Notes: a model not told the origin generated them from the letters alone. A stretch of DNA of 6,960 bases from an uncultured archaeon (GCA_964565125.1 CAZMCX010000039.1:1-6960), one strand, 5' to 3'. Positions 1 through 6,897 are shown, counted from the first letter of the stretch. A program made the numbers and translations.

Positions 1-87
1 AGGCTTTGTATTCCAAAGATCTTGTGACACTTTGTAAAATATTTGTGTCGATAGATATAAAATATTCTACACTGTATGCCCAGTGTG

Positions 88-267
88 CTAGGCGAAGATT
101 TTTTCAAAGTATTTTGTTTTATAATTTTTTATTCTGTCCTTTGCAACATCACCTAAGTAATGCACATTTAAAACAAAGACAGTAACTATTGCAACCAAAA
201 CAATTGCAAAAACAATAGTTAAGAGGTACTCTAAAGATACTTGAGCCCTCTTTTCTTTAAAATACAT
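88..267 (-). CDS. Miniature class III signal-peptide (type IV prepilin-like) pilin, paralog A, 59 aa; not in supplied ORF track
   Basis: Manual reverse-strand translation with ATG at 267-265 and TAG at 90-88 gives MYFKEKRAQVSLEYLLTIVFAIVLVAIVTVFVLNVHYLGDVAKDRIKNYKTKYFEKIFA. A short basic leader (KEKRA) is followed by QVSLEYLL and about 25 uninterrupted hydrophobic residues. This fits the QxSxExxxL pattern of the archaeal Class_IIIsignal family (PF04021). An SD-like GTGATCC (plus strand 272-278) lies 4 nt upstream of the ATG and overlaps the stop of the upstream pilin gene. It is paralogous to the 278..478 ORF. Confidence 0.75.
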   Translation of the reverse strand: MYFKEKRAQVSLEYLLTIVFAIVLVAIVTVFVLNVHYLGDVAKDRIKNYKTKYFEKIFA

Positions 268-277
268 AAAAGGATCA

Positions 278-478
278 CTACTTTATTTCTGGTATTGCAG
301 CTTTTCCGCTTTTTAAGGTATCCGTGTAAACTTCGGTTTGGCTATTTACATCTGAGCCGCCTTTCTTGCCCAAATTAATTACAATAGCAATAACCACAGC
401 AGCCAGAACAATAGACCCACCAATAATTAAAAGGTACTCCAAAGCGCCTTGTGCTTTTTCATCTTTTAGAAATTTCAT
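278..478 (-). CDS. Miniature class III signal-peptide (type IV prepilin-like) pilin, paralog B, 66 aa
   Basis: The ORF-track protein is MKFLKDEKAQGALEYLLIIGGSIVLAAVVIAIVINLGKKGGSDVNSQTEVYTDTLKSGKAAIPEIK. It has a charged leader, then AQGALEYLL, a hydrophobic helix and a short hydrophilic tail. A strong SD (GGAGGGGT, reverse complement of 484-491) lies about 6 nt upstream of the ATG. Confidence 0.85.
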   Translation of the reverse strand: MKFLKDEKAQGALEYLLIIGGSIVLAAVVIAIVINLGKKGGSDVNSQTEVYTDTLKSGKAAIPEIK

Positions 479-501
479 TTTTTACCCCTCCAAAAATAAT
501 T

Positions 502-681
502 TTATTTTCCACTTGTTTTTTCATACAATTCTTTCCACTTGTTTTCATCTGGTTGAGATTCAACAACCTTGGTTTTAATATAATAACCTATTAATGTAAC
601 TAGTACCAAAACACCAGCTACAATCAATATTACTTCCAAAGATGTTTGTGCTTTTTTATCATCAATATAACTTTCATTCAT
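502..681 (-). CDS. Miniature class III signal-peptide (type IV prepilin-like) pilin, paralog C, 59 aa; not in supplied ORF track
   Basis: Manual reverse-strand translation with ATG at 681-679 and TAA at 504-502 gives MNESYIDDKKAQTSLEVILIVAGVLVLVTLIGYYIKTKVVESQPDENKWKELYEKTSGK. The leader ends in KKA, followed by QTSLEVIL and a hydrophobic helix. A partial SD (GTGAG) lies upstream. The gene starts 15 nt after the platform gene stop. Confidence 0.75.
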   Translation of the reverse strand: MNESYIDDKKAQTSLEVILIVAGVLVLVTLIGYYIKTKVVESQPDENKWKELYEKTSGK

Positions 682-696
682 AAATGCTCACTAAAA

Positions 697-1605
697 TTAC
701 ATCATTCCTATTAATAAATATTTCGAAAGGTACTTTATGCCGTAGAATGCAATATACGCACACAATAAAAACAATGGCAGATACAAAAAGGTTTTTGCAA
801 ATTTACGTTCACGCATGAAAACAACCATTATAGATGATGCCAAAGCCTGAATAAAAACAAATATAGTTAATACGCTTTCGATTAAATTTCTAACACCTAG
901 TGCAGTTGCAACTGTTTCTAGCTTTGCCAGTCCTGCAGATGATGTTACAGTAAGTAAAAAATCGATTAGGGTTAAAACCAAACCATAGATTGCGGGAGCA
1001 ATTATTGCTCCAGCTGCAAAAATAAAAAGCATTTGCATCATTGTTTTTGCTTTTCTATCTAATTCTAATTTGTATAATTTTCGCATATCTTCAGACAAAT
1101 CCTCTAAAATATCTGATAAAGAAGCACCAGCTTTTATAGAATCTGAAATTATAGATATTGTCTTTTTCACCATTTGTGAATCTACATTTTCAGCAACAAT
1201 AGATAATGATTCTTCAAAATTATAACCTTGTTCTAATCTTAGCAAAACATTTTCAAATTCATCATTCAATGGCCCATAATCATAAGTTGTCAACTCTCTT
1301 ATAGCGTATTCGTACGTTCCTCCGGTTTTTAAAAGATATGCAATTTCTCTTAATGCATTTGGAAAATACTTTTCTATAAGAGAAATTCTTTTCTCTTCTA
1401 AAAATAAGGGATAACCTATAAACAAATCAAATGCACACAAAAATCCTACGATCCCTAAAACTATATTTCCTAATAAAATAAACAAAAACAAAACTATCAA
1501 ACCAACAATCAAAGCAAGGAGAAGCCAAAGATTAACATTTATCTTTATTTTGTTCCTGTACAAAACAGTTTGGTATTTTTGCAACATCAAATTTATATTG
1601 AACAT
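697..1605 (-). CDS. Type IV filament platform protein, single T2SSF domain (TadC / EpdK-like), polytopic membrane protein
   Basis: The 302-aa ORF has an N-terminal TM hairpin and a cytoplasmic helical domain (FPNALREIAYLLKTGGTYEYAIRELT...LEQGYNFEESL...IKAGASLSDILEDLSEDM) typical of the GspF/PilC/TadC T2SSF fold (PF00482). C-terminal TM helices follow. SD GTGAT lies 5 nt upstream of the ATG at 1605. Confidence 0.85.
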   Translation of the reverse strand: MFNINLMLQKYQTVLYRNKIKINVNLWLLLALIVGLIVLFLFILLGNIVLGIVGFLCAFDLFIGYPLFLEEKRISLIEKYFPNALREIAYLLKTGGTYEYAIRELTTYDYGPLNDEFENVLLRLEQGYNFEESLSIVAENVDSQMVKKTISIISDSIKAGASLSDILEDLSEDMRKLYKLELDRKAKTMMQMLFIFAAGAIIAPAIYGLVLTLIDFLLTVTSSAGLAKLETVATALGVRNLIESVLTIFVFIQALASSIMVVFMRERKFAKTFLYLPLFLLCAYIAFYGIKYLSKYLLIGMM

Positions 1606-1614
1606 AAAATATCA

Positions 1615-2748
1615 CTATATACTTGGCCTTATACTTCTAATATACAATAACAAACCCAATAATATCAGCGGGAATATTACTAAAAAAGAAATTATTATTA
1701 CAGTTGGAGTTAAAGGAAGAGCATCAAAAAAGGAAATGCTCGATCCCAAAGGCGCATTCCTTATTCCAGATAATATTGCCAACATTACAGGAACAACAAT
1801 TCCAACAAAAATATAAATTACTCCTAAAAAATTTAATTTCCCAGAAAAGGTATCAATATCTGCAGACAATTGATAAGACACATCATCTGCAATTGTTGTC
1901 ATTATTTCTGACAAATTTCCTCCGCTCTTTAATGCTCTTAACAAATGATTTATTGCGTTTTTCAAAGCAAATGATTTTGTTCTGAGGGATAATGCTCTCA
2001 AAGCATCTTTAATGTCTTGGCCTTCTTCAACTTCCATTATTGTTTTTGTTAATTCTTGTGACAAAACACCATAATCAGATACAGCAACTGTTCTTACCAC
2101 TTTATACAAGTCCACCCCAGCTCTCAAGAGAGTTGCCATGTGCCTTAATGCAAAAGGCAAATTAGTATCTATTTCTTTAGCTCTCTTTTTTGCAATCATT
2201 GAGGGGTATTTCAAAGCAAAAAATGCACCCCCTATAAAAAAGAAGATGCACAATATTAAAGGTATTAAAAAACTTACTCCTAACAATAAAAATACAGAAA
2301 ATAATGCAATAATTACTACCAAATTAAATAAAAAAACAGAAACTGATGCTATTGCCAAATATTGTGAAACACTATAATTTATATCTGCAGAATAAAGTTC
2401 GTATGCTAACACTTTAGACTCTGGCAATTTTCCTAAAATCTTTTTTGCAATAAATCCAAAAAACTTGCTGAATTTAGTATATATTGTGCCAATATTTCGT
2501 ACAACAGGATTAAAACTGTACGATAAATCAGCAGGCTTCAACACTTCTATCTTTGCTCTTTTTCCCTCGGAGATCAATGATCTTAATTCTTTTAAATTAT
2601 ATGTTTCTGAATCCCCTAACAATCCTTGCTTCTCATATTTTTCTTTTATTCTACTAACTATGGCATCAACTTTAGACATGTCTATCTGTTCTTGTATTTC
2701 AACTTTATTTTTGCTGGTATCTGAAACAAAGGTTTGTTGATAAGCCAT
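1615..2748 (-). CDS. Type IV filament platform protein, single T2SSF domain (TadB / EpdJ-like), polytopic membrane protein with about 120-aa cytoplasmic N-terminal extension
   Basis: The 377-aa ORF has TM helices and a T2SSF-like cytoplasmic domain (LPFALRHMATLLRAGVDLYKVVRTVA...VEEGQDIKDALRAL...LKSGGNLSEIMTTIADD), followed by C-terminal TM helices. SD GAGGA lies 6 nt upstream of the ATG at 2748. Confidence 0.85.
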   Translation of the reverse strand: MAYQQTFVSDTSKNKVEIQEQIDMSKVDAIVSRIKEKYEKQGLLGDSETYNLKELRSLISEGKRAKIEVLKPADLSYSFNPVVRNIGTIYTKFSKFFGFIAKKILGKLPESKVLAYELYSADINYSVSQYLAIASVSVFLFNLVVIIALFSVFLLLGVSFLIPLILCIFFFIGGAFFALKYPSMIAKKRAKEIDTNLPFALRHMATLLRAGVDLYKVVRTVAVSDYGVLSQELTKTIMEVEEGQDIKDALRALSLRTKSFALKNAINHLLRALKSGGNLSEIMTTIADDVSYQLSADIDTFSGKLNFLGVIYIFVGIVVPVMLAILSGIRNAPLGSSISFFDALPLTPTVIIISFLVIFPLILLGLLLYIRSIRPSI

Positions 2749-2832: not shown

Positions 2833-4509
2833 TTAAGATTCATAATATTTCGCAATATATTTTGCGACATCGTCTTTTTTTCTTATATTTTTTTCTAACA
2901 ACAAATCAAAGAATTGTGCTCTATTATCTATTTCGTCTTTTACATTTTGTGTTGTTCTTCCAGAATATGTTGAAATATTTTTAACTACTCTTGAAGGTAT
3001 AGAAGTATCATATATTTTATCGCGTTTAGGATCCCATTCAAATATCCTTTGTGTTTTAATTTGATCTTCAATAACGCCAGAAACTTCAGAAATCTCCACA
3101 ATTCGTCTTATTGTTCCTTTTTTTTTGTCGTGCAACCTATTTTGAACAATTATCATATCCAATCCTGCCAACATCATCTTAGGAACGTTCATTGGTGGGT
3201 TTGTAATTCGTGTTAAAGTTTCATCAGAATTGTTTGCATGCAATGTTCCCATACTTCCATCGTGTCCTGTTGACATAGCAGTAAAAAGAGTATCTGCTTC
3301 AGCACCTCTTACTTCACCAACTATTATTCTATCGGGTCTCATTCTCAAAGCATTCTTTGTAAGCATCTCTAAAGTAATTTCCCCGGTGCCTTCTATTCCT
3401 GGTGGCCTAGATTCTAATCTAATCCAATGTTTCAAAGGGAGATTTAATTCTGAAGTGTCCTCGATCGAAATAATCCTTTCATATTCAGGGATCAAAGAAC
3501 ACAAAACATTTAGAGTTGTTGTTTTACCTGATCCTGTACCTCCAGAAATAACGATATTTGCTGGTTTTGTACTTAAGCCTTCAACACAAGTCCATAAAAA
3601 ACCAGCAACATAAGAATCAAATGTTTTATAACTTATCAAATCAACAACAGTATATGGCTCTTCTCTAAATTTTCTAATAGTTAAGGTAGAGCCTTGAACA
3701 GATGCTGGGGGCAAAGTAGCATTTACTCTTGATCCATCAGGCAAACGAGCATCCAATAATGGTTGTGAATAATCTATTCTTCTTCCTGCATATCTTGCAA
3801 TTCTTCCAACAATATCTTGAATCTCTTTATCAGTATAAAAAACAATATTTGTTGTCATCATTTCATATTGCCTATGAAAAACGTACACTGGGTGGTTTGG
3901 GCCAATAATCATTATTTCTTCTAATAAATCATCTTTTAACAAAAGATCTATTTTTCCAAAACCCACCATTTCTCTTACAACACTTTCAGCATAAAAACTT
4001 AACATGCTCTCTGGAATTTTCAATTCTGGAGATGAATTAATTATTTCCATAACTTTTTGATAATAAACATTCCATCTTTGTTTCTCGTCCCTTATTTTAT
4101 ATGGTGCTAGAGAAATTATTCTTGTAGCTGCTTCCTTTATTGTATTTATTATTTCTTGTTCGCTCGTATTTGCTTTTGGCACAGGCACTTCATAATGCAA
4201 TAATGGGCGTCCTTCTAATTTGTATATTGTAACTTGATTATATTTTGCAACAACTGTTTTTTGAACTTCTCCTAAAGAATCTACACTTATTTCTTTTGTT
4301 GTATTCAGTATATTTTTGAGATTTTCAAAATGTTTTGAATCAATTTTTTGAATTGGTACATCTTTTGTTGACTGTTCCTCTTCTGGCAAAGAAATTTTCT
4401 TTGGCGAACCAATTATACTCTGCAATTCTTTATTAAAATCGTCTTGTCTAATATCTTTCTTTTTCTTCTGTTGAGTATCCTTAAATAAATCTCCCATTAT
4501 TTCTCCCAT
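2833..4509 (-). CDS. Type II/IV secretion-family hexameric ATPase (FlaI/ArlI / CpaF-TadA / EpdL-like pilus assembly ATPase)
   Basis: Walker A is ISGGTGSGKTT (3517..3543), the Asp box is IISIEDTSEL, Walker B is RPDRIIVGEVRGAEA and the His box is TGHDGSMGTLHAN. All are diagnostic of the T2SSE family (PF00437). The track ORF begins at a TTG (4539). I place the start at ATG 4509, which is preceded by SD GGTGAT 3 nt upstream. ATG 4497 is an alternative start. Confidence 0.9.
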   Translation of the reverse strand: MGEIMGDLFKDTQQKKKKDIRQDDFNKELQSIIGSPKKISLPEEEQSTKDVPIQKIDSKHFENLKNILNTTKEISVDSLGEVQKTVVAKYNQVTIYKLEGRPLLHYEVPVPKANTSEQEIINTIKEAATRIISLAPYKIRDEKQRWNVYYQKVMEIINSSPELKIPESMLSFYAESVVREMVGFGKIDLLLKDDLLEEIMIIGPNHPVYVFHRQYEMMTTNIVFYTDKEIQDIVGRIARYAGRRIDYSQPLLDARLPDGSRVNATLPPASVQGSTLTIRKFREEPYTVVDLISYKTFDSYVAGFLWTCVEGLSTKPANIVISGGTGSGKTTTLNVLCSLIPEYERIISIEDTSELNLPLKHWIRLESRPPGIEGTGEITLEMLTKNALRMRPDRIIVGEVRGAEADTLFTAMSTGHDGSMGTLHANNSDETLTRITNPPMNVPKMMLAGLDMIIVQNRLHDKKKGTIRRIVEISEVSGVIEDQIKTQRIFEWDPKRDKIYDTSIPSRVVKNISTYSGRTTQNVKDEIDNRAQFFDLLLEKNIRKKDDVAKYIAKYYES

Positions 4510-4520
4510 CAAATCACCAA

Positions 4521-4528
4521 TATTTATA
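4521..4528 (-). promoter_or_regulatory. Candidate archaeal TATA box (TATAAATA on the minus strand) for the pilus operon
   Basis: The minus strand reads GGTATAAATATTGGTGATTTGATGGGAGAAATAATG. The TATA-like octamer ends 11 nt before ATG 4509 and 23 nt before ATG 4497. That spacing would fit a leaderless transcript starting near 4497. Other A/T-rich TATA-like strings (for example TTTATATG near 4589-4596) also occur in the spacer, so the assignment is weak. Confidence 0.25.
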
Positions 4529-4537
4529 CCTAACCAC

Positions 4538-4613
4538 AAATTTTACTGTTTAGTGTATTAGCCAATACACAATCGATACATAAAATTTACATATAAATTT
4601 TACTGCTTAGTGT
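4538..4613. repeat. Pair of 19-nt direct repeats (18/19 identical) flanking the rfcS/ATPase intergenic spacer, with an internal 7-bp hairpin
   Basis: Copy 1 at 4538-4556 is aaattttactgtttagtgt and copy 2 at 4595-4613 is aaattttactgcttagtgt. Copy 2 covers the last codons and stop of rfcS. Copy 1 lies just upstream of the ATPase start region. An inverted repeat gtgtatt/aatacac (4553-4559 / 4564-4570, 4-nt loop) overlaps the end of copy 1. Confidence 0.6.
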
Positions 4614-6897
4614 GTAAATTAAACATGGCCAACATAGCCTCTATTTGAAGCCTATCGTTTGCACCTTCAGATACTCTAAAATTAATTTCACTTATAATCT
4701 CAATTAAACTTACTTTTTCTCTCGAATTCAAATAATCCTCTGAAAAATCAACTACTTCGCGATAAATTTGATTCAAAATATCTTCTCCAGACATACCATA
4801 ATTAAACATCAGTTTGTATAAAAGATCTCTTGCATCTTTAAATTTTCCATCTTTTGCGAGTAAAACCATTTTTTTTACTTCTTCAGGCCTTGCCCTGGCA
4901 CTTACTGTGAATACTTCTTGCTCACCAATAGAATCATCCAAAACACTACACGCTTGTAAAATATTTATTGCTTTTCTCATGTCGCCTAATGAAACATAAA
5001 ATATTGCGCTCAATGCTTTATTATCTATTTTTAGTTTTTCGTTTTTCGAAACCTCTTCTAGTCTGTTTATAACAGATTCTTTTTCCAAAGGCTTAAACCT
5101 AAAGACAACACATCTTGATTGTATTGGTTCAATAATGCGTGATGAATAATTGCAAGATAAAATAAATCTGCATGTTCTTGTATATTTTTCCATTGTTCTT
5201 CTTAATGCTTGCTGGGCATCTTGTGTTAAAGCATCCGCCTCATCCAAAAAAATAATTTTATACTCAGCCTCTAAGGGGAGGGTTCTTGCAAAATCTTTTA
5301 TTGTTTTTCTAACAACATCGATGCCCCTGTCATCACTATTATGAAGCAAAACAGGGGCTGTGCCACCCCAAAAAACTTCAGCACCCGGAACAGAAACATC
5401 ATACACATAATCATTATGTTTTTCCTTTTTTATTTCTGTTACCGCTAGAACATATAAATCAGAATTTACTAATTTGTTGAGCTTTTCTAATCCTTTTTTA
5501 TTTTTTAATAATGCCAATACTTTTTCTGCAGCAGTCTTCGAAATACGATCACACATTTTACTATAAAGTGAATGTCTCAGCAAATATTTTGTCTTCCCTT
5601 TGTATTTTTCTGCTAATTTGTTGAATATTTTTGATGGCAAAAGTTCTGCTTTAGTATAACTAAAAGATTTATTTGGCCAAATTAATCTTGTTTCTTTTGG
5701 AAAAACGCTTGATTCAACATTAGATAGTCTACTTAACCAAACAACATCTATAAGACATTCTTGAGATACTGATGATATTCGTGCAACTTTTTCCCAAATT
5801 CCGGAACCATCACCATCCCAATATCCTTTTATAAATGATAATCTTTGTTTTGAATTTGTATCAAAAATAAAGGTGGGTACTCTTTTTGTATTCGCTTTGT
5901 GGGATATATCGCCACCATAAAAATTAGCTTGCATAAACTTTGCTAATTGTGTATTAAAAACTCTTGTCTGCAAAGAGGTTTTCTTTGTTCTATCAAAACC
6001 AGATGCTCCTAAATAACAAGAATAGTTTAATCCTAAAGAAGTACTTATTTTTTGTATATTTTCTATATGCGGTACATCTTTTGGGTTGGGATAACCCAAA
6101 GTATAAATAATCTGACCACTAGTACCTGTGTTTGACATAGAAGTACAACCTTCTGCTAAATACATTCCAAAATACCAACTTAAATCATCATCAATTGAAA
6201 GTGTGTCAAAATTTTTTTTGAATGTAGGATTTGGTTGAATACCACTTCTTAATTGACAAAATTCAGCAGATTTATATTTTTCTAAATCAATATAATTTGA
6301 TTGCCCTTCAAAATCTGTTTTAAAAGAAATCAAAAGATCGCCTTTCTTTATTTCTGAGGCTTTTTTAGTAATTATATTGCCACAATCATCAAAAACCATT
6401 ATAGAATGAGATAAACTTGTTTTTACTTCGCCACCTTCATATTTTATTTTTAATATTTCGTTTACTTTATGTCTAAACAAATGTCCTACTTTCATAAATT
6501 TAACATTGTTGCACTTATCTAAAGATAACACTTCTAGATCATCAATACAAACCCGCTTAGATACAAAATCTAAAAAATATTTCTCTGCGAGCCAACCAAA
6601 ATTAACTCTATGTATTTCTTTGCCTTCTTTTATTAAAATTGGTGTATCTGGTGTTACACTCGCATTTAATTCTAAAAAATTTCTCTCAGCATTTTCTTTG
6701 AACAATTGTTTAGATATTGCTATTGCACTGGTTGTTTTTCCTGTACCTGCGGGCCCTGCAAAAATCATATTTGGAAGATCTTTATCCTCTGTGTATTTCT
6801 TTAATCTTTTTACAACTAGTTCGTTTCCTACAACATCATTTAAAGAATCAGGCCTATATTTTTCAACCCACGGCAAATTCGCATCTTTGTGTGTCAT
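4600..6897 (-). CDS. rfcS: Replication factor C small subunit (clamp loader) precursor containing one intein; predicted spliced product 324 aa
   Basis: The exteins carry all RFC small-subunit boxes. These are PWVEKYRP, Walker A GPAGTGKTT (6730..6756), NFLELNA|SDDRGIDVVR, Walker B IIFLDEADALT, SRC motif PIQSRCVVFRF and sensor-2 GDMRKAIN, plus a C-terminal Rep_fac_C-like helical domain. A 441-aa insertion separates ELNA from SDDRG. SD AGAGGGA lies upstream of the ATG at 6897. Confidence 0.93.
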   Translation of the reverse strand: MTHKDANLPWVEKYRPDSLNDVVGNELVVKRLKKYTEDKDLPNMIFAGPAGTGKTTSAIAISKQLFKENAERNFLELNASVTPDTPILIKEGKEIHRVNFGWLAEKYFLDFVSKRVCIDDLEVLSLDKCNNVKFMKVGHLFRHKVNEILKIKYEGGEVKTSLSHSIMVFDDCGNIITKKASEIKKGDLLISFKTDFEGQSNYIDLEKYKSAEFCQLRSGIQPNPTFKKNFDTLSIDDDLSWYFGMYLAEGCTSMSNTGTSGQIIYTLGYPNPKDVPHIENIQKISTSLGLNYSCYLGASGFDRTKKTSLQTRVFNTQLAKFMQANFYGGDISHKANTKRVPTFIFDTNSKQRLSFIKGYWDGDGSGIWEKVARISSVSQECLIDVVWLSRLSNVESSVFPKETRLIWPNKSFSYTKAELLPSKIFNKLAEKYKGKTKYLLRHSLYSKMCDRISKTAAEKVLALLKNKKGLEKLNKLVNSDLYVLAVTEIKKEKHNDYVYDVSVPGAEVFWGGTAPVLLHNSDDRGIDVVRKTIKDFARTLPLEAEYKIIFLDEADALTQDAQQALRRTMEKYTRTCRFILSCNYSSRIIEPIQSRCVVFRFKPLEKESVINRLEEVSKNEKLKIDNKALSAIFYVSLGDMRKAINILQACSVLDDSIGEQEVFTVSARARPEEVKKMVLLAKDGKFKDARDLLYKLMFNYGMSGEDILNQIYREVVDFSEDYLNSREKVSLIEIISEINFRVSEGANDRLQIEAMLAMFNLHTKQ
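5338..6660 (-). mobile_element. Intein (441 aa, residues 80-520 of the RFC precursor) with embedded double-LAGLIDADG homing endonuclease
   Basis: Block A is SVTPDTPILIKEG (Ser1) and block B is EVKTSLSHSIMVF. LAGLIDADG motif 1 is LSWYFGMYLAEGC (6145..6183) and motif 2 is LSFIKGYWDGDGS (5803..5841). Block F is DYVYDVSVPGAEVFWGG and block G is APVLLHN, followed by the +1 Ser. In-silico excision regenerates the canonical RFC sequence NFLELNASDDRGI. Confidence 0.88.

Follow-up and report, generated by a model that had tools for sequence, protein, structure and literature searches.

What do three very short open reading frames (ORFs) beside pilus assembly genes of an uncultured archaeon encode? They lie on a stretch of 6,960 nucleotides (nt) (GCA_964565125.1 CAZMCX010000039.1:1-6960), referred to here as the window; positions are counted from its first letter. 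The source organism is a member of Candidatus Diapherotrites (DPANN) from Crystal Geyser groundwater. An original prediction, made from the sequence alone, read the three ORFs as a tandem array of miniature class III pilin genes. Our analysis indicates that the three, here called P1, P2 and P3, are very probably real, translated genes for helix-only type IV pilins of an Epd-like pilus operon (archaeal ‘system 1’, Tad-related). The array consists of:

502-681, minus strand: P1 mini-pilin gene, 59 codons; leader MNESYIDDKKA; predicted mature protein of 48 amino acids (aa), starting QTSLEV
278-478, minus strand: P2 mini-pilin gene, 66 codons; leader MKFLKDEKA; predicted 57-aa mature protein, starting QGALEY
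88-267, minus strand: P3 mini-pilin gene, 59 codons; leader MYFKEKRA; predicted 51-aa mature protein, starting QVSLEY

Between the stop codon of the second T2SSF gene (697-1605) and P1 there are 15 nt. Gaps of 23 nt (479-501) and 10 nt (268-277) separate P1 from P2 and P2 from P3. Positions, sizes and gaps are those originally predicted, as are the mature lengths given cleavage before Gln.

All three proteins share one architecture, which the original prediction had described in outline: a charged leader ending in K/R-A, a Q-x-[S/A]-L-E motif and an uncharged hydrophobic run of 19–26 residues, with a best 19-residue hydropathy of 2.7–3.3. The predicted cleavage sites are KKA|QTSLE (P1), EKA|QGALE (P2) and KRA|QVSLE (P3). 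Six-frame translation of the window contains the pattern [KR][GAS]Q.[SA].[ED] three times. In 1000 composition-matched simulations it occurred 0.038 times on average and at most twice, so that none reached three.

Are the ORFs genes at all? An exact look-up of the neighbouring platform protein located the source contig and nine sister contigs; wherever one of these contigs spans the ORFs completely, P1, P2 and P3 all have public gene calls. NCBI data contain all three sequences. P1 is PIU22290.1 and P3 is PIU22291.1, both labelled ‘hypothetical protein’ of Candidatus Diapherotrites archaeon CG08_land; for P2 the look-up gave no accession. The original prediction held that length-filtered annotation would miss such genes. 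Two of the ORFs do fall one codon under 60 aa, but real pipelines call all three and merely name them poorly. A metaproteogenomic study of cold-water geysers (PMC11452946) contains no data on these proteins.

Codon alignments point to purifying selection on all three genes, with ratios of nonsynonymous to synonymous substitution (dN/dS) of 0.19–0.42 for P1, 0.10–0.40 for P2 and 0.12–0.33 for P3. Synonymous sites are near saturation in each (proportion of synonymous differences, pS, 0.4–0.9). A Shine-Dalgarno-like motif precedes each gene. In all six loci compared, the P2 motif is GGAGG, GAGGTG or GGGGGA at the same place; those of P1 and P3 are of the GTGA type only. The window carries this element:

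485-491, minus strand: strong Shine-Dalgarno motif GGAGGGG, 6 nt before the P2 ATG, read from the sequence

These data bear on the explanation that the small ORFs are chance or untranslated sequence, or generic small membrane peptides with no link to the pilus machinery. Their very short length would fit it, as would Pfam scores below the gathering threshold for two of the three (see below) and the overlap of P1 and P2 by a 70-aa antisense ORF. Against it stand purifying selection in the minus-strand frames, the motif count far above chance, the invariance of Gln+1 and Glu+5, the conserved synteny described below and the Shine-Dalgarno-like motifs. Chance ORFs are excluded by the combination of purifying selection, conserved order and Shine-Dalgarno-like motifs, and we regard this explanation as a whole as extremely improbable. 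The antisense ORF (366-578, plus strand) is the sole opposite-strand ORF of at least 60 aa that overlaps P1 or P2. We rejected it as a gene, given that its starts and lengths shift among relatives and that it has no family match. An open antisense frame over P2 is seen again in several relatives and looks like the expected by-product of a conserved hydrophobic coding strand.

To which family do the proteins belong? Among Pfam families, PF04021 (Class_IIIsignal) comes first for P1, P2 and P3 alike. The gathering threshold of 23.7 bits is passed by P1 (33.4 bits), and P2 (23.4 bits) and P3 (21.5 bits) fall just under it. Many P1- and P2-type orthologues have precomputed PF04021 matches, and orthologues of all three types carry the JGI name ‘UPF0333 family’. 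EpdE of Methanococcus maripaludis, a major pilin proven by experiment (Q6LWM4, ‘Major structural pilin EpdE’; sequence confirmed by exact look-up), has a PF04021 score of 36.7 bits. A family profile built from 44 sequences aligned with EpdE in hhalign at 93% probability (E 2.9e-7, 39 columns). The alignment places KAQ over KGQ, and the cleavage sites are therefore in register. Gln+1, Glu+5 and Leu+8 are invariant in all 44 family sequences. The NCBIfam family TIGR04205 (PIP-CTERM-associated class III family) was rejected for P1, which scores 19 bits against a cut-off of 65 and shares the N-terminus only. None of the three window proteins matches Arch_flagellin (PF01917).

AlphaFold2 predicts a single helix for P2 (residues 7–61; predicted local distance difference test, pLDDT, 86–97 over residues 11–40) and for P3 (residues 3–58; mean pLDDT 82). 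On these models, P2 and P3 have no room for a globular domain. A profile search of the PDB gave archaeal pilin N-terminal helices as the best matches, all weak (E 0.05–0.14). The P2 model had no Foldseek match in the PDB at E≤10. A lone helix has no fold signal, and for this reason a Foldseek comparison with Tad pilins was not possible. The PDB sequence-profile and Foldseek searches returned no solved structure of an archaeal helix-only pilus.

Matches to the family profile extend across 2166 representatives of 50%-identity clusters (E≤0.001). Many are 50–70 aa long; among the top new cluster representatives, 61 of 142 have no more than 70 aa. Filtering ORFs at 60 aa can thus conceal a large protein family, which is a lesson for annotation.

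Is the array itself conserved? A contig scan based on platform alignments, with narrow peptide patterns, gave three loci only, and the wider synteny was traced through contigs encoding homologues. The homologues split into three clean orthologous groups (P1-, P2- and P3-type), which are only 27–35% identical to one another. The close-relative loci with the triad are L019–L023 and contig u5-Ot6HK (gene calls only), whose platform proteins are about 71–75% identical to those of the window. In every related locus with sequence reaching that far, P1, P2 and P3 follow one another in this order, flanked by the second T2SSF gene and a Peptidase_A24 gene; the original prediction had proposed such synteny as a check. 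P1 orthologues occupy the same slot in six relatives and retain the segment GYYIKTKVV. P3, always the last small gene before the peptidase, is conserved over its whole length, including a basic/aromatic C-terminus (K-x-KYFEKIF).

The same plan recurs in two distant Iainarchaeota/Diapherotrites genomes (GCA_026414365.1 and GCA_028702895.1): an ATPase, two T2SSF genes, small class III genes and a Peptidase_A24 gene with an Arc_PepC domain. There are three or five small genes per genome, and the order of types is kept in both. The first small gene of GCA_028702895.1 is clearly P1-like, a precursor of 45 aa with a ‘YIKT’ signature and a predicted mature length of about 40 aa. One to three P2-like genes take the middle in distant genomes, some of them 85–93 aa long with Cys-rich tails, and the last small gene is P3-like with an ‘AQ[VI]-x-x-EYL’ signature. 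At 7312-8297 of the Ca. Iainarchaeum contig L025, for instance, the P2 slot holds three paralogues of 85–93 aa, each with a P2-type N-terminus and a Cys-rich C-terminal extension. The match to PF04021 and EpdE, the conserved synteny and the purifying selection together support the core of the original prediction, that these are class III mini-pilins. Separately, a 16.5-kb JGI 3300022555 contig (L017) has a P3-type gene at its very start and otherwise bacterial-looking genes (GreA, YbaB, MlaD/MlaE); it is probably a chimeric assembly.

What machinery would handle these proteins? Three genes upstream of the array, on the same strand, encode parts of a pilus assembly apparatus:

697-1605, minus strand: second inner-membrane platform gene, 302 aa; single T2SSF stretch, PF00482 E 5e-16
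1615-2748, minus strand: first inner-membrane platform gene, 377 aa; single T2SSF stretch, PF00482 E 3e-21
2833-4539, minus strand: assembly ATPase of the T2SSE/FlaI/TadA family, PF00437 E 1e-46

The 377-aa platform protein aligns with the N-terminal part of the ArlJ/FlaJ model. For the ATPase, the public gene call gives 554 aa with a start at 4497. Its NCBIfam scores are 313 bits for FlaI, 245 for TadA and 203 for the bindosome ATPase BasE, all sub-threshold. The locus contains no archaellum accessory genes among the called genes of the window contig and its relatives.

Downstream, the operon runs past the left edge of the window. The next gene after P3 on the 34.9-kb source contig (L001) starts 22–58 nt past that edge, depending on the start codon chosen, and encodes a 383-aa protein (L001 11627-12778) with Peptidase_A24 and Arc_PepC domains. 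Scores are 42–58 bits for Peptidase_A24 and 23.6–34.2 bits for Arc_PepC, both above their cut-offs. The 383-aa protein has both catalytic Asp motifs (T-D35-I-K-K-R-E-V and G-G-D97-A-K). In NCBIfam it matches EppA best, over the full length (residues 18–372 against model positions 3–331 of 334); the orthologue on L019 matches FlaK only. At least three larger class III-type proteins follow before the contig ends (L001 11627-14078, including the peptidase), with the N-termini KKG|QLSVEF, NKG|QVAIDL and QKG|FFISLD. In relatives, five class III-type genes of 96–194 aa follow the peptidase, and the operon ends at convergent Peptidase_M48 and LemA genes. Since the peptidase and pilin-like genes lie past the left edge, the window covers only part of the operon. 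The original prediction had warned that length filtering would leave the locus with a single pilin or none in appearance; with a peptidase and at least three further pilin-like genes behind the array, that concern falls away.

Do the three proteins do the same job? P2 varies in a way of its own. Its first ~31 residues are almost invariant between species, and its C-terminus is hypervariable and unalignable. Over the 6,960 nt, the window and L001 differ at seven positions, of which five lie inside the 201 nt of P2 (binomial p = 4e-7) and four of those five alter amino acids. In eight aligned full-length alleles from a ten-member 90%-identity cluster, P2 has 10 variable positions; the last 21 residues contain every one of them and the first 45 none (Fisher p = 1.7e-6). 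Single-nucleotide polymorphisms (SNPs) between strains cluster in the tails, at the C-termini of P2 (283-342) and P1 (514-545). Against L008 and L009, the P2 and P1 tails have six differences each and the neighbouring platform gene two or three. One P2 substitution, S46N (window about 341-343), creates an N-Q-T glycosylation sequon in the L001 and L002 alleles that the window allele does not have; it may be an on/off glycosylation polymorphism on an exposed tail.

The P2-type gene also varies in copy number among genomes. A fourth mini-pilin gene of this type, P0023, lies about 12 kb upstream in the same genome (L011 8001-8177), remote from the array and directly upstream of secD/secF. It encodes 58 aa, has an N-terminus near-identical to that of P2 and bears the NCBI name ‘class III signal peptide-containing protein’. 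The variation pattern and the strong Shine-Dalgarno motif of P2 are what is expected of an abundant shaft subunit with a surface-exposed C-terminal tail. Given these features, the copy-number turnover and the remote fourth copy, P2 most likely forms the shaft as its major subunit. The most likely role of P1 and P3 is that of specialised, low-abundance subunits alongside the larger pilin-like proteins encoded after the peptidase; each has a sequence conserved in its own right and a constant place in the array, first or last, which speaks against redundancy. One major and two minor subunits, as originally suggested, is a plausible division with indirect support. There is precedent in M. maripaludis, where piliation requires five pilin-like genes and the major subunit is EpdE (PMC4390842).

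Alternatively, P1–P3 could be interchangeable major pilins, antigenic or functional variants used by condition, as Makarova et al. (2016) suggested for paralogous pilins of ~70 aa (PMC4858521). The processing site common to all three proteins would suit this, as would the varying number of P2-type genes and the copy elsewhere in the genome. Redundant copies, however, would be expected to turn over, and the three form distinct orthologous groups, at the low mutual identity given above, that keep fixed array positions even in distant Iainarchaeota. The strong Shine-Dalgarno motif and the hypervariable tail are found in P2 only, and EpdD, a pilin-like protein of M. maripaludis, acts beside EpdE as an essential minor pilin (PMC4390842). 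We consider interchangeable major pilins possible but doubtful.

The assignment of P2 as the major subunit can be carried a step further, to a proposal that we make only tentatively. The fixed P1-P2(n)-P3 order might reflect an obligate division of labour, with P2 as the shaft, its ~20-residue tail under diversifying selection, and P1 and P3 as initiator, anchor or adaptor subunits to a larger minor-pilin complex. Under that proposal the P2 tail could be the host-cell recognition surface of a DPANN archaeon, or a virus receptor. If true, the array would be a minimal, compact model for priming and specialisation of helix-only (Epd/Tad-type) filaments.

How would such a filament be made? By analogy with characterised systems, the hydrophobic helix of each precursor would bring it into the membrane. 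Cleavage after K/R-Ala by the EppA-like aspartic prepilin peptidase would then take off the charged leader of 8–11 residues and expose Gln+1. Helices of 48–57 residues would next be drawn out of the membrane by the T2SSE ATPase and the split platform and packed into a thin filament. Its core would consist of the hydrophobic N-terminal halves with Glu+5 and its surface of the polar C-terminal tails, as in the Caulobacter Tad pilus. Cleavage before Gln would fit both the EppA-like peptidase gene next door and the published rule that EppA processing requires a +1 Gln in M. maripaludis, where EpdE is the major pilin (PMC4390842). The pilus likely serves adhesion to surfaces or other cells.

Might the machine work without a long surface pilus? 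P1–P3 would then be pseudopilins of, for example, a secretion piston, a bindosome-like apparatus for substrate capture or a DNA uptake system. The sequences identify type IV filament subunits and no more, the ATPase does match the bindosome BasE model at the 203 bits given above, and archaeal type IV filament machines are functionally diverse (bioRxiv 10.64898/2026.04.22.720090). Yet all that the locus contains is pilin-like genes and the peptidase, with no substrate-binding, DNA-handling or secretion-substrate gene. Adhesive pili are the product of Epd, the closest system that has been characterised (PMC4390842, PMC6668835), and a hypervariable, exposed tail on P2 would suit a surface filament. 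We judge pseudopilins improbable.

Several points weigh against an Epd-like pilus with P2 as its major subunit. P2 and P3 are slightly under the Pfam gathering score, and the L001 peptidase scores 48.9 bits on EppA against an equivalog cut-off of 450. Residue −1 is Ala in all three window proteins and Gly in EpdE. N-glycosylation sequons are absent from the mature parts of the window alleles; EpdE has four. Unlike the Epd organisation described by Denise et al. (PMC6668835), the locus has no KaiC/FlaH- or TadZ-like second ATPase; none is found among the called genes of L001, L019, L020, L024, L025 and u5-Ot6HK. The assignment of P2 as the probable major and P1 and P3 as the probable minor subunits draws on Shine-Dalgarno strength and variation patterns.

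What else lies around the array? Between P3 and the peptidase gene there is one further element:

69-86, minus strand: terminator-like hairpin ACACTGGGCATACAGTGT with a T-rich tail, directly after the P3 stop; found by consensus scan only

A possible function of this hairpin is to attenuate transcription from the pilin genes into the peptidase gene. The spacer between P3 and the peptidase gene is ~110–140 nt long in this strain only; in relatives the genes are separated by a few to ~30 nt or overlap. Strain SNPs at 50, 56 and 81 lie in it. A 60-aa ORF in the L001 spacer (11548-11730) was rejected as a gene; its ATG reads ATA in the window (the SNP at position 56). A scan for sigma-70 promoters was at background (17 found, 15 expected), and its consensus is bacterial and not relevant to an archaeon. 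Rfam had no match in the window.

Upstream of the ATPase, an RFC small-subunit gene (4600-6897, minus strand; 765 aa in total) is split by an intein with LAGLIDADG/homing-endonuclease traces. Its orthologues beside the pilus operon in L019 and L020 have 320–321 aa and no intein. MutS of the same genome is likewise intein-bearing (L011 1-1891). RFC lies directly upstream of the pilus ATPase in L001, L019 and L020, with no obvious functional link. In distant genomes the ATPase has a different upstream neighbour, a tRNA synthetase (L025) or a gap of ~2 kb with no called gene (L024).

What does the assignment add? This kind of surface filament is already recognised, and the P1-P2-P3 layout conserved across the phylum and the hypervariable P2 tail are modest extras. 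Three GenBank proteins that were ‘hypothetical’ or unnamed gain a probable function, and a Diapherotrites lineage is credited with an Epd/Tad-like pilus operon that is compact and complete. Since DPANN archaea are believed to need contact with other cells, adhesive filaments are plausible key organelles for them. Subunits of 48–57 residues, with a three-gene layout and a hypervariable tail, would also be convenient for structural work on archaeal helix-only pili.

Which known systems does the operon resemble? What sets the Epd-like class (system 1 of Makarova et al. 2016) apart is a platform of two single-T2SSF genes, together with short pilins that have no globular domain and a dedicated EppA peptidase (PMC4858521, PMC6668835); it is reported from methanogens, Thermococcales and DPANN (bioRxiv 10.64898/2026.04.22.720090). 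As in M. maripaludis (EpdE/EpdD), the pilins here are very short and PF04021-like, with K/R-[G/A] followed by Q-x-[A/S]-x-E. Also as in Epd, the platform is split into two single-T2SSF genes beside a T2SSE ATPase, and the locus has a putative EppA-like dedicated peptidase with an extra C-terminal domain and several additional pilin-like genes. Unlike in Epd, the operon itself contains the mini-pilin genes, tandemly arrayed in a fixed order between platform and peptidase, whereas the methanococcal genes typically stand alone (PMC4858521). The precursors have 59–66 aa compared with 74 for EpdE, similarity to EpdE is confined to the first ~39 aligned residues, and the peptidase is only distantly EppA-like.

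Haloarchaeal PilA/Pilin_N-type pilins have a similar N-terminal hydrophobic helix and provided the best PDB matches. Solved Pilin_N-type archaeal pilins bear a C-terminal globular domain. Proteins of that type have 145–165 residues, whereas those described here would have 48–57, and P2 and P3 are each modelled as one helix.

An Epd-like archaeal system is the presumed ancestor of bacterial Tad pili, and two platform genes and short pilins are common to Epd and Tad (PMC6668835). Tad pili are built from helix-only pilins of 40–60 residues, and mature PilA of Caulobacter crescentus has 45 (PMC10710030). The original prediction placed P1–P3 among the shortest filament subunits; as Tad pilins span 40–60 residues, sizes of 48–57 are unexceptional, and a shorter relative has a precursor of only 45 aa. 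The present locus differs from Tad/Flp (type IVc) systems in its Gln+1 processing motif, in having no secretin or TadZ and in its single-membrane archaeal host. No match to Flp_Fap was obtained at E≤1, and Flp1_like gave only E 0.29 (P2) and E 0.035 (P0023), below its cut-off of 33.5 bits. P1–P3 are not members of the Flp family but probably work like Flp pilins. Like Tad pilins, they are predicted to be helix-only proteins with no globular domain; they are encoded beside a TadB/TadC-style split platform and a TadA-like ATPase, and their polar C-terminal half would form the filament surface.

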